NCBI GenBank assembly: GCA_964016885.1
Contig: CAXHJY010001220.1
Location: 1 to 61,896, forward strand
From: Eledone cirrhosa
Lineage: Eukaryota
Reading direction: 5' to 3'
Length of the DNA: 61,896 bases
The translations under genes and the position numbers were made by a program. This document shows positions 51,838 to 54,600 of this stretch, one piece after another; the first letter of the stretch is position 1, and each line of letters opens with the position of its first letter. Below the pieces are notes generated by a model. The model was not told the origin of the DNA. It searched no databases and saw only the letters and a list, made by a program, of their open reading frames with translations.

Positions 51838-54600
51838 TATATTTATATATATATATATATTTATATATATATATATATATATATATATATATACATATAT
51901 ACAAATATATGTATATATATATATATACAAATATATATATATATATATATATATATACATATATACAAATATATGTATATATATATATATACAAATATAT
52001 ATATATACATACAAATATATATATATATATACATATATACAAATATATGTATATATATATATATATATACAAATATATATATATACAAATATATGTATAT
52101 ATATATATACAAATATATATATATATATACAAATATATATACATATATACAAATATATATATATATATACAAATATATATACATATATACAAATATATAT
52201 ACATATATACAAATATATATACATATATACAAATATATATATATATATATATATATATATATACAAATATATATATATATATACAAATATATATATATAT
52301 ACAAATATATATATATATACAAATATATATATATATACAAATATATATATATATACAAATATATATATATATACAAATATATATATATATATATATATAT
52401 ATATATATATATATATATATATATATATACATATACATATACATATATATATATACATATATACAAATATATATATATACATAGATACAAATATATATAT
52501 ATACAAATATATATATATATATATATACAAATATATATATATATATACAAATATATATATATATATACAAATATATATATATATACAAATATATATATAT
52601 ATATATACAAATATATATATATATATACAAATATATATATATATACATATATATATATATATATATTCAAATATATATATATATTCAAATATATATATAT
52701 TATATAAATATATATATATATTATATAAATATATATATATATAAATATATATATATATATATATATATATATATATATATATACATATATATATACAAAT
52801 ATATATATATATATATATATATATACAAATATATATATATATATATATATATATTCAAATATATATATATATTCAAATATATATATATTATATAAATATA
52901 TATATATATTATATAAATATATATATATATAAATATATATATATATATATATATATATATATATATATATATACATATATATATACAAATATATATATAT
53001 ATATATATATATATATATATATATATATATATATATATATATATATATAACTTTGAATAACTTTGAAATGTTTTGGCCAGTATTGGCCCAGGCCATGTCT
53101 AACTTAATAGCACCACCTGGCGAAGTCTTTCAATTCAGGATTTGGGCACCATGGCCCATTCGAGAAGAGAATTACTGTTTGCGGAGACATATCCGGGTGT
53201 GGGTGGTTTGTCCGGGATTACTTGGAGGAATTTGTCCAAAGACTTCTTGAATTTTGTGTGGTCAGTTTCTGTTTTGACGTGTCCTGGTGTGATGTTGAAG
53301 AGAGCAGGGCCGATTGAGGTGAAATAATTGTGCCGTATTGTTGTTATGAGTTGCGATTTAGATTTTTGAATGGGACGGATAGCACGGGGCCCAAGCCTTG
53401 GGTGTATCTTGAAGGCGATGCCAACATCATTTGGGCAGTGATGATGGAACATTTTCCACATCATGCAGATAATATAACGCTCACGGCGACGTTGGAGTGA
53501 GTAAATATATATATTTTATATATATATATATATATATATAAAATATATATATATATAAATATATATATAAATATATCTACATATATATATACATATATAA
53601 AATATATATATATATAAATATATATATATAAATATATATACATATATATATACATATATACAAATATATATATATATACAAATATATATATATATATATA
53701 TTATATATATATATATATATAAATATATATATATATATATATAAATATATATATATATATATATATATATATATATATATATATATATATATATAAAATA
53801 TATATATATATATATAAAATATATATATATATATATATATAAAATATATATATATATATATAAAATATATATATATATATATATATATAAAATATATATA
53901 TATATATATATATATAAAATATATATATATATATATAAAATATATATATATATAAATATATATATATATACAAATATATATATATATATATATATAAATA
54001 TATATATATATATACAAATATATATATATATATATATAAATATATATATATATATACAAATATATATATATATATATACAAATATATATATATATATATA
54101 TATATACAAATATATATATATATATATAAAATATATATATATACAAATATATATATATATATACAAATATATATATATATATATATATATATACAAATAT
54201 ATATATATATATATATACATATATATATACAAATATACATATATATATATATACAAATATATATATATATATATATATACAAATATATATATATATATAT
54301 ATACATATATATATACAAATATACATATATATATATATACAAATATATATATATATATATATATATACAAATATATATATATATATATATTTGTATATAT
54401 GTATATATATATATTTGTATATATGTATATATATATATTTGTATATATGTATATATATATATTTGTATATATATATATATATTTGTATATATATATATAT
54501 ATATATATATTTGTATATATATATATATATTTCTATATATATATATATATATATATATTTGTATATATATATATATATATATATACAAATATATATATAT
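51838..54600. repeat. Compound (TA)n/(TACAAATA) arrays (51838-53048, 53504-54600)
   Basis: Direct inspection. Confidence 0.95.
53049..53503 (-). mobile_element. CR1/L2-group LINE 3' fragment inside a (TA)n array
   Basis: YSLQRRRERYIICMMWK..CPND..GPALFN.TP..FKKSLDKFL..IPDKP..GY..NSLL; tail (TTCAAAGTTA)2. Confidence 0.8.

Follow-up and report, generated by a model that had tools for sequence, protein, structure and literature searches.

Insertions of Penelope-like elements (PLEs) have been described as carrying an inverted 5'-truncated copy and a tail of 30-40 bp on one side only, and in microsatellite targets the target duplications are usually invisible (PMC8557442; here and below, papers are cited for the passages drawn on). 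In vitro, a pair of RT start sites bounds the tail, and cutting and extension take place on both target strands (PMC11167929). Rotifer inverted pLTR inserts are flanked by direct duplications of 8-10 bp (PMC3846280). Regarding the target itself, TA repeats form hairpins and cruciforms, which structure-selective nucleases can cleave (PMC12972899), a link has been drawn between MMEJ repair at TA breaks and short templated duplications (PMC13645644), and ape genomes commonly show short-range template switches that give rise to inverted repeats (PMC7954356). PLE integration is incompletely worked out, and interrupted arrays act as a barcode of what was copied from where.

The locus described here lies in a window (the whole stretch of DNA analysed) of 61,896 nt, which is AT-rich and contains many kilobase-scale (TA)n arrays. 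Two highly homogeneous minisatellites are also present, one at 29199-34389 with a 44-bp unit (~118 copies, 96% matches) and one at 37310-39947 with a 33-bp unit (~67 copies, 96% matches). One of the (TA)n arrays harbors a PLE palindrome, and on the left side of this palindrome the array contains an inverted copy of the sequence on its right side.

The main PLE and other copies in the window

The main element occupies 54604-60322 and forms a 5.7-kb near-perfect head-to-head palindrome with a 1-bp spacer, the survival of which is notable. It is composed as follows:

54604-57440, minus strand: left arm, a 5'-truncated, tailless PLE with an open frame
57441, no strand: one-base spacer, head-to-head junction of the arms
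57442-60279, plus strand: right arm of the PLE, frame broken near 59389
60280-60322, plus strand: 43-bp PLE tail, at this end only, common to the tail-bearing ends of other family copies

The two arms are 99.8% identical, with 4 substitutions and 2 one-base indels between them. The open frame of the left arm (55126-57441) encodes 772 aa with an RT, with the YVDD motif in the frame, and with a putative GIY-YIG-type domain at its C-terminus. It matches Pfam RVT_1 with an E value of 1.6e-4, under the curated cut-off, and the PDB contains two weak RT matches to its sequence (E 0.055 and 0.17). Among 285 protein relatives the best is an RT-domain protein of Octopus vulgaris with 68% identity, so that the DNA is likely that of a cephalopod, and the start of the ORF aligns to residue 272-314 of relatives with a length of 1045-1175 aa (P0007, P0011, P0018, P0028). 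At the C-terminus we spotted by eye the pattern VYSIRC...C...YIGET...H...H, which would fit a GIY-YIG endonuclease with CCHH motif. The Pfam GIY-YIG profile matched neither the ORF nor its last 145 aa, a Pfam search of three relatives added nothing, and PF01541, presumably the same GIY-YIG family, was found in one of the 120 relatives listed (of 285). A core motif with a 6-bp stem II, resembling that of a hammerhead ribozyme, lies at 60033-60060 in the right arm and at 54849-54822 in the left arm; it is conserved at 18307 and recurs at 11237, there with a different stem. The Rfam search returned no hammerhead and only hairpin-type matches under the gathering scores. The CTNRKCIIC at aa 639 of the ORF is a CX4CX2C form of the CX2-5CxxC linker preceding the endonuclease, and this linker is common to Neptune and Nematis (PMC8557442). 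Judged by its sequence, the main element fits a 5'-truncated Neptune-like PLE, and it has both the inverted 5'-truncated partner and the one-sided tail; we use the label 'Neptune-like' because no named PLE references were among the matches listed. The differences between the arms were polarised with 60 of the 120 listed relatives: the right arm has the derived state for the frameshift and for the two non-synonymous changes, one of which affects the YIG motif, while 2 synonymous changes were left unpolarised; three polarised events do not suffice to place the arms in order.

Protein matches to 60 of the 120 listed relatives were confined to 11405-11923, 21324-21689 and the main PLE. The following further copies were identified:

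18020-18461, no strand: short two-ended PLE copy from the main element's family or a sister one, tailed at one end and tailless at the other
~18780-19111, no strand: short two-ended PLE copy from the main element's family or a sister one, tailed at one end and tailless at the other
19168-19335, no strand: short two-ended PLE copy from the main element's family or a sister one, tailed at one end and tailless at the other
11033-11923: further copy of the PLE 3' end, sister family

All five tailless ends in the window, including that of the main left arm, stop at the identical point. Given this family-wide pattern of tailed and tailless ends and the published layout, the arm ends of the main PLE are ordinary. 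The tailed sides of the three two-ended copies are followed by a variant at ~20 bp, by (GT)n or by unique DNA, the tailless sides by 64-67 nt of pure TA. Mirrored flanks, which the initial annotation had proposed to look for beside other PLE copies as switches of polarity, were present at none of the three; these are weak controls, being short, asymmetric and older, with 84-93% identity to the main PLE and with two of them sharing one TA run.

Several other arrangements were noted. In the 18020-19335 cluster two copies meet tail-to-tail across a single 64-nt TA run. At two tailless ends (11021-11036 and 54589-54604) exactly 16 alternating bases precede the first A-run interruption of the host, a shared spacing (n=2) that may reflect a fixed nick stagger. 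An inverted pair at 9982-10695, whose hammerhead-like cores lie at 10165 on the minus and at 10613 on the plus strand, is probably a different PLE family, and a further core lies at 4089. The match at 21324-21689 is a separate GIY-YIG-like PLE fragment with ~30% identity to the relatives of the main PLE. An element with inverted ends of ~160 bp is situated inside a TA array at 14143-14892, and related sequence is found at 1-177.

The inverted block and the right flank

The target of the main PLE is a (TA)n array interrupted by short non-TA motifs. Its flanks can be divided into the following segments:

51838-53050, forward polarity: leftward part of the same host array, beyond the non-repeat insert
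53051-53504: non-repeat DNA breaking the left host array
53505-54390, plus strand: host (TA)n array of forward (CAAA) polarity, left of the main PLE
54371-54390: 20-nt TA run, outer junction of the inverted block
54391-54561, minus strand: inverted block, probable copy of the element-free target, recognised by unit order, homology and unit-level score
54531-54533, minus strand: diagnostic TTC variant, the reverse complement of GAA at 60351-60353
54562-54585, no strand: self-complementary TA run of 24 nt flanked by TTG and CAA, putative fold-back centre
54586-54604, plus strand: forward CAA unit and 16-nt run reaching the PLE, first unit of the mirror's right arm
60323-60469, plus strand: right-flank segment, source or sister of the inverted block

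The motif TACAAATA occurs 67 times in the window, 50 times in 51838-54370, 11 times in 60323-60747, once at 54584 and 5 times elsewhere. TATTTGTA occurs 9 times; 7 of these lie within 54388-54563 and none elsewhere in these host arrays, where the units are forward. The flip in polarity that the initial annotation had seen in the left flank is thereby borne out. The array from 51838 to 54370, which had been taken as continuous, is indeed of forward polarity, but it is broken by the non-repeat DNA at 53051-53504. This insert contains an open frame of 126 aa at 53135-53515, the product of which may resemble the C-terminus of a LINE protein. Within the host array a tandem duplication of ~188 bp with nearly identical run lengths is found at 52640-52990; it shows that the array grows by block duplication and suggests that the assembly is accurate there.

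A rare variant shared by both flanks had likewise been pointed out, and correctly so: TATTTCTATA at 54528 corresponds to TATAGAAATA at 60347, and GAA makes up 1 of the 129 interruptions across the three forward host arrays. One further copy of the variant is located at 5172, outside any array. If each interruption is written with the length of the run after it, the inverted block reads on the minus strand CAA/25, GAA/17, CAA/25, CAA/17, three times (CAA/13, C/7), CAA/20, and the right flank reads run of 28, GAA/17, twice (CAA/13, C/7), CAA/17, C/7, CAA/29. Thus 54391-54561 reproduces the right flank (60323-60469) in inverted orientation, although imperfectly. The similar run of variants that had been claimed for the two flanks includes a long exact match, but the block carries 48 additional bp, and one of its runs is 4 bp shorter. 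Nor does the block lie directly beside the palindrome as had been thought, since 43 bp with a forward CAAA unit (54562-54604) separate the two. The block does not contain the 43-bp PLE tail.

The initial annotation had suggested aligning the reverse complement of the left segment to the right flank. Searched against the whole window, the reverse complement of 54375-54580 has its longest exact match there, 83 bp long (54402-54484 to 60352-60434), and a second exact match of 61 bp carries the GAA (54498-54558 to 60326-60386). Outside the right flank the best exact match of the block is 65 bp. Positions 54466-54528 also have an exact match of 63 bp in the adjacent left array, and given this match the inverted block may be, as far as the sequence suggests, a mosaic of several switches. 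In plain nucleotide alignment (204 sliding windows) the right flank was not singled out, the left array scoring 139.5 vs 133.75 for the right; this alignment is uninformative as a homology test because TA runs dominate the score. We devised a log-odds score at the level of units, and compared 103 real 10-unit windows, 90 of them in the left array. The first 10 units of the right flank rank first of the 103 with 27.6 bits (21.9 bits without the GAA unit), while the best of the left array reaches 15.8 bits. None of 3000 shuffles attained the unit-level score of the right flank, and 3 of 3000 attained an exact match of 83 bp. As the plain alignment does not discriminate and shuffles occasionally produce 83 bp, the case for homology rests on the interruptions.

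That the block is an inversion of some other part of the array resembling the right flank by chance is already largely refuted and deserves next to no credence: the array is of low complexity and the left array aligns equally well by plain nucleotide score, but the unique GAA/17/CAA is shared, along with the 83-bp match, the first rank among 103 and the 0 of 3000 shuffles. The PLE tail and 3' transduction were also considered as sources of the block and rejected, given that the CAAA vocabulary is specific to the host array (62 of 67 TACAAATA) and that, in the case of transduction, the tail missing from the left arm would be expected between the element and the transduced flank. The suggestion that target DNA was copied in inverted orientation stands, and a fold-back or template switch of some kind is needed.

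Mirror centre and possible origins of the block

Two centres of symmetry can be considered. With the PLE removed in silico, the flanks are symmetrical about 54573 with 172 matches, gaps of 30 and 4 bp and 1 mismatch, and the 54562-54585 run is the centre of an exact mirror of 19 bp outside the run. The symmetry about 57441, with the tail ignored, comprises 142 matches with a 90-bp gap. The block furthermore contains a CAA-25 nt-GAA junction with neither tail nor element in between, which is absent from the filled right flank; in the filled locus the matching CAA lies left of the PLE (54586) and the GAA right of it (60351). A phase break in the copy at 18020-18461 places the end of the tail two bases beyond 60322, from which a host run of 25-26 nt before the GAA follows, compared with 25 nt in the block. 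Among 58 runs after CAA, 25 nt is found in 2 and 25-27 nt in 6. Considering the CAA-25 nt-GAA junction and the better symmetry about 54573, an element-free template is the simplest source, and the block was probably copied from it. DNA folding of the element-free site gave -128.8 kcal/mol, vs -64.8 to -90.6 for 18 forward stretches; this lower energy only restates the mirror.

The account we favor, and hold to be reasonably probable, is a short-range template-switch or snap-back duplication from the element-free target. A 3' end in the self-complementary 54562-54585 run would fold back and be extended by ~200 nt along its own strand, and the extended strand would rejoin the left flank by TA microhomology at 54371-54390, leaving a local palindrome with two arms of ~200 bp. 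Both proposed switch points are even-length TA runs and as such self-complementary. The first run in the right arm of this palindrome would then receive the Neptune-like PLE in the usual way, the tailless start being placed on one target end and the tailed start on the other, with a head-to-head join between them. Insertion would leave a short direct duplication of roughly 12-18 nt hidden in the TA run, and later slippage would add or remove the 48 bp and 4 bp. Such a cryptic direct target-site duplication may lie within the TA run of 54586-54604; trimming 18 nt as the presumed duplication lowered the alignment score (138.8 vs 153.8), which lends no support to that length.

As to the cause of the fold-back, for which the favored account allows two triggers (TA fragility or the PLE's nuclease), ordinary fragility of the TA repeat, prior to the insertion, is quite possible, though we stop short of calling it probable. 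The initial annotation had held that a link to the PLE would fail if polarity flips were equally common away from PLEs, and this is partly the case, as flips of similar size and exact TA-centred mirrors are found elsewhere in the window. An exact TA-centred mirror without a PLE inside is present at 23679-23698, where it extends 47 bp past the run, and others at 45211-45238, 47258 and 47368 extend 28, 20 and 24 bp; 82 of the 114 even TA runs have any mirror, mostly a trivial one of a few bp. The longest of these served as a control:

23632-23745, no strand: control mirror with 57-bp arms and TA-run centre, no PLE inside

In the paralogue of this mirror at ~2060-2240 the second arm is absent. 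The two regions, 2021-2271 and 23523-23803, are two copies of a TA-flanked repeat, the second of which gained the mirror or the first of which lost it. A TA/CA array at 46990-47480 consists of alternating direct and inverted units of ~25 bp with several TA-centred mirrors. Of 9 other arrays scored, 5 contain blocks of minority polarity comprising two or more units, among them a block of 10 units at 15140-15265; no clear adjacent source was found for this block, the best candidate being 43 bp with 2 non-TA letters. The arms of the control mirrors (20-57 bp) are shorter than those of the main block, and the control mirrors and flips are ~2 to >7 kb away from detected PLE pieces, a distance to be read with the proviso that non-coding pieces of other clades could escape detection.

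The PLE insertion lies ~31 bp from the mirror centre in an array of 1525 bp, which would happen by chance in ~4% of cases. The independence of the mirror from the PLE is therefore doubtful, and because of this proximity a causal link is kept in play, although we regard a coupling of PLE and fold-back as rather unlikely. An earlier or concurrent cut by the PLE's own nuclease as the trigger of the fold-back appears unlikely as well. In one variant of such a coupling, the GIY-YIG nuclease may nick (TA)n and trigger a ~200-bp snap-back copy of the intact target prior to integration; in another, the PLE may prefer the tips of fold-backs that form hairpins or cruciforms in (TA)n arrays.

The strongest alternative to the snap-back duplication, unlikely in our estimate, places the event after insertion. 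Here the 2.8-kb arms would pair in the nascent strand and bring right and left flank into apposition, self-pairing of (TA)n would allow the polymerase to switch strand, and ~200 nt of the right flank would be copied backwards before it returns, in the manner of a quasipalindrome correction. The perfecting of inverted repeats by template switching within a strand has been documented (PMC7954356), and such a correction would explain why the block lies beside the PLE, why the insertion is only ~31 bp from the mirror centre, and why short asymmetric copies have no such block. The C of TTC and the G of GAA are 2908 and 2910 bp from 57441, and the GAA and the next CAA are thus within 2 bp of symmetry about this point; in a rough simulation such near-exact register arose with a chance of ~17% under the element-free-template model. 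However, when the symmetry about 57441 is left ungapped, at most 3 of the 12 C/G interruptions are mirrored, and the correction would need a CAA between tail and GAA that is now absent from the right flank, and this unit would have to have been lost afterwards, unless a third switch took place.

Assembly is difficult in long palindromes and TA arrays, and reads of the right arm and flank, aligned in reverse through the palindrome, could have overwritten the left flank in the consensus. The near-register about 57441 would fit this too, and assembly problems at PLEs have been reported (PMC8557442). Against such an artefact, which we consider very unlikely, the arms have kept 6 differences and the asymmetry of the tail, which would tend to be evened out by mixing, the right flank has no counterpart to 48 bp and a CAA unit of the block, and the tailless end is the one typical of the family.

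The initial annotation had attributed the inverted flank to a hairpin-capped end or to fold-back synthesis through the PLE. A hairpin-capped or folded-back cDNA copied through the whole PLE into the flank, with later removal of the tail, would agree with the one-base spacer at 57441 and the 99.8% identity of the arms. Palindromes at inverted junctions of PLEs have been read as self-priming (PMC3846280), and reports on L1 include fold-back junctions and three insertions whose reciprocal end carries inverted genomic DNA (PMC11702581). The copy, though, would then adjoin the arm and include the 43-bp tail. The left arm instead stops without the tail at the normal tailless point of the family (5 of 5), beyond it come first a forward host unit and next CAA-25 nt-GAA, two extra units (forward CAA, reverse TTG) stand between arm and block, the symmetry requires the 90-bp gap, and none of the three other two-ended copies has a mirrored flank. 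This route is consequently not supported, and we rate it as even less likely than an artefact.

Comparison with described systems

Should the coupling be true, PLEs would help to generate polarity flips and the growth of kilobase-scale interrupted TA arrays, and the interruptions would read out nick positions and stagger where duplications are normally invisible. If flipped flanks were tied to PLE ends genome-wide, they would make nuclease targeting and end resolution accessible to testing. The present single locus, best explained by a common TA fold-back, is a curiosity and also a warning, in that polarity flips in (TA)n are by themselves not insertion footprints. A flipped microsatellite flank at a PLE was not found in the literature surveyed by titles and opening lines of abstracts, which included few subscription papers and makes this a weak negative; the passages drawn on from PMC12602865, PMC13282606 and PMC4689423 hold nothing on flanks.

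With C-terminal-endonuclease PLEs of the Neptune and Nematis type (PMC8557442, PMC3846280, PMC11167929), the main element shares the RT, the CX2-5CxxC linker, the (TA)n target, an inverted 5'-truncated partner and a one-sided tail, and it may share the GIY-YIG-type domain after the RT and the hammerhead-like core. It differs from the PLEs presented in the cited passages in its arms of equal length (2.8 kb) with a 1-bp spacer, and where short direct duplications or none discernible are given there, a flipped flank is found here. As in classical target-site duplication, target sequence is present on both sides of the element, but the block is inverted, ~10x longer, does not abut the element and has its own TA-run centre. 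Non-canonical L1 insertions (PMC11702581) resemble the locus in that inverted or templated genomic DNA is found at the end opposite to the primary primer; the enzyme class is different, the copy described here spans the insertion point, and its link to insertion is conjectural.

In the four-point model of short-range template switching (PMC7954356), the reverse complement of nearby DNA is copied between two switch points and an inverted repeat is created, as is seen at this locus, and an enrichment in AT-rich sequence is reported there. With ~170-215 bp the copied stretch exceeds the gold-standard set of that study (median 12, maximum 128 bp), and unlike the switches described in the passages cited, both switch points lie in (TA)n runs and a retroelement sits inside one arm. 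The components of the locus are thus of known kinds, a PLE with inverted partner and tail on the one hand and a TA-primed template-switch duplication on the other.
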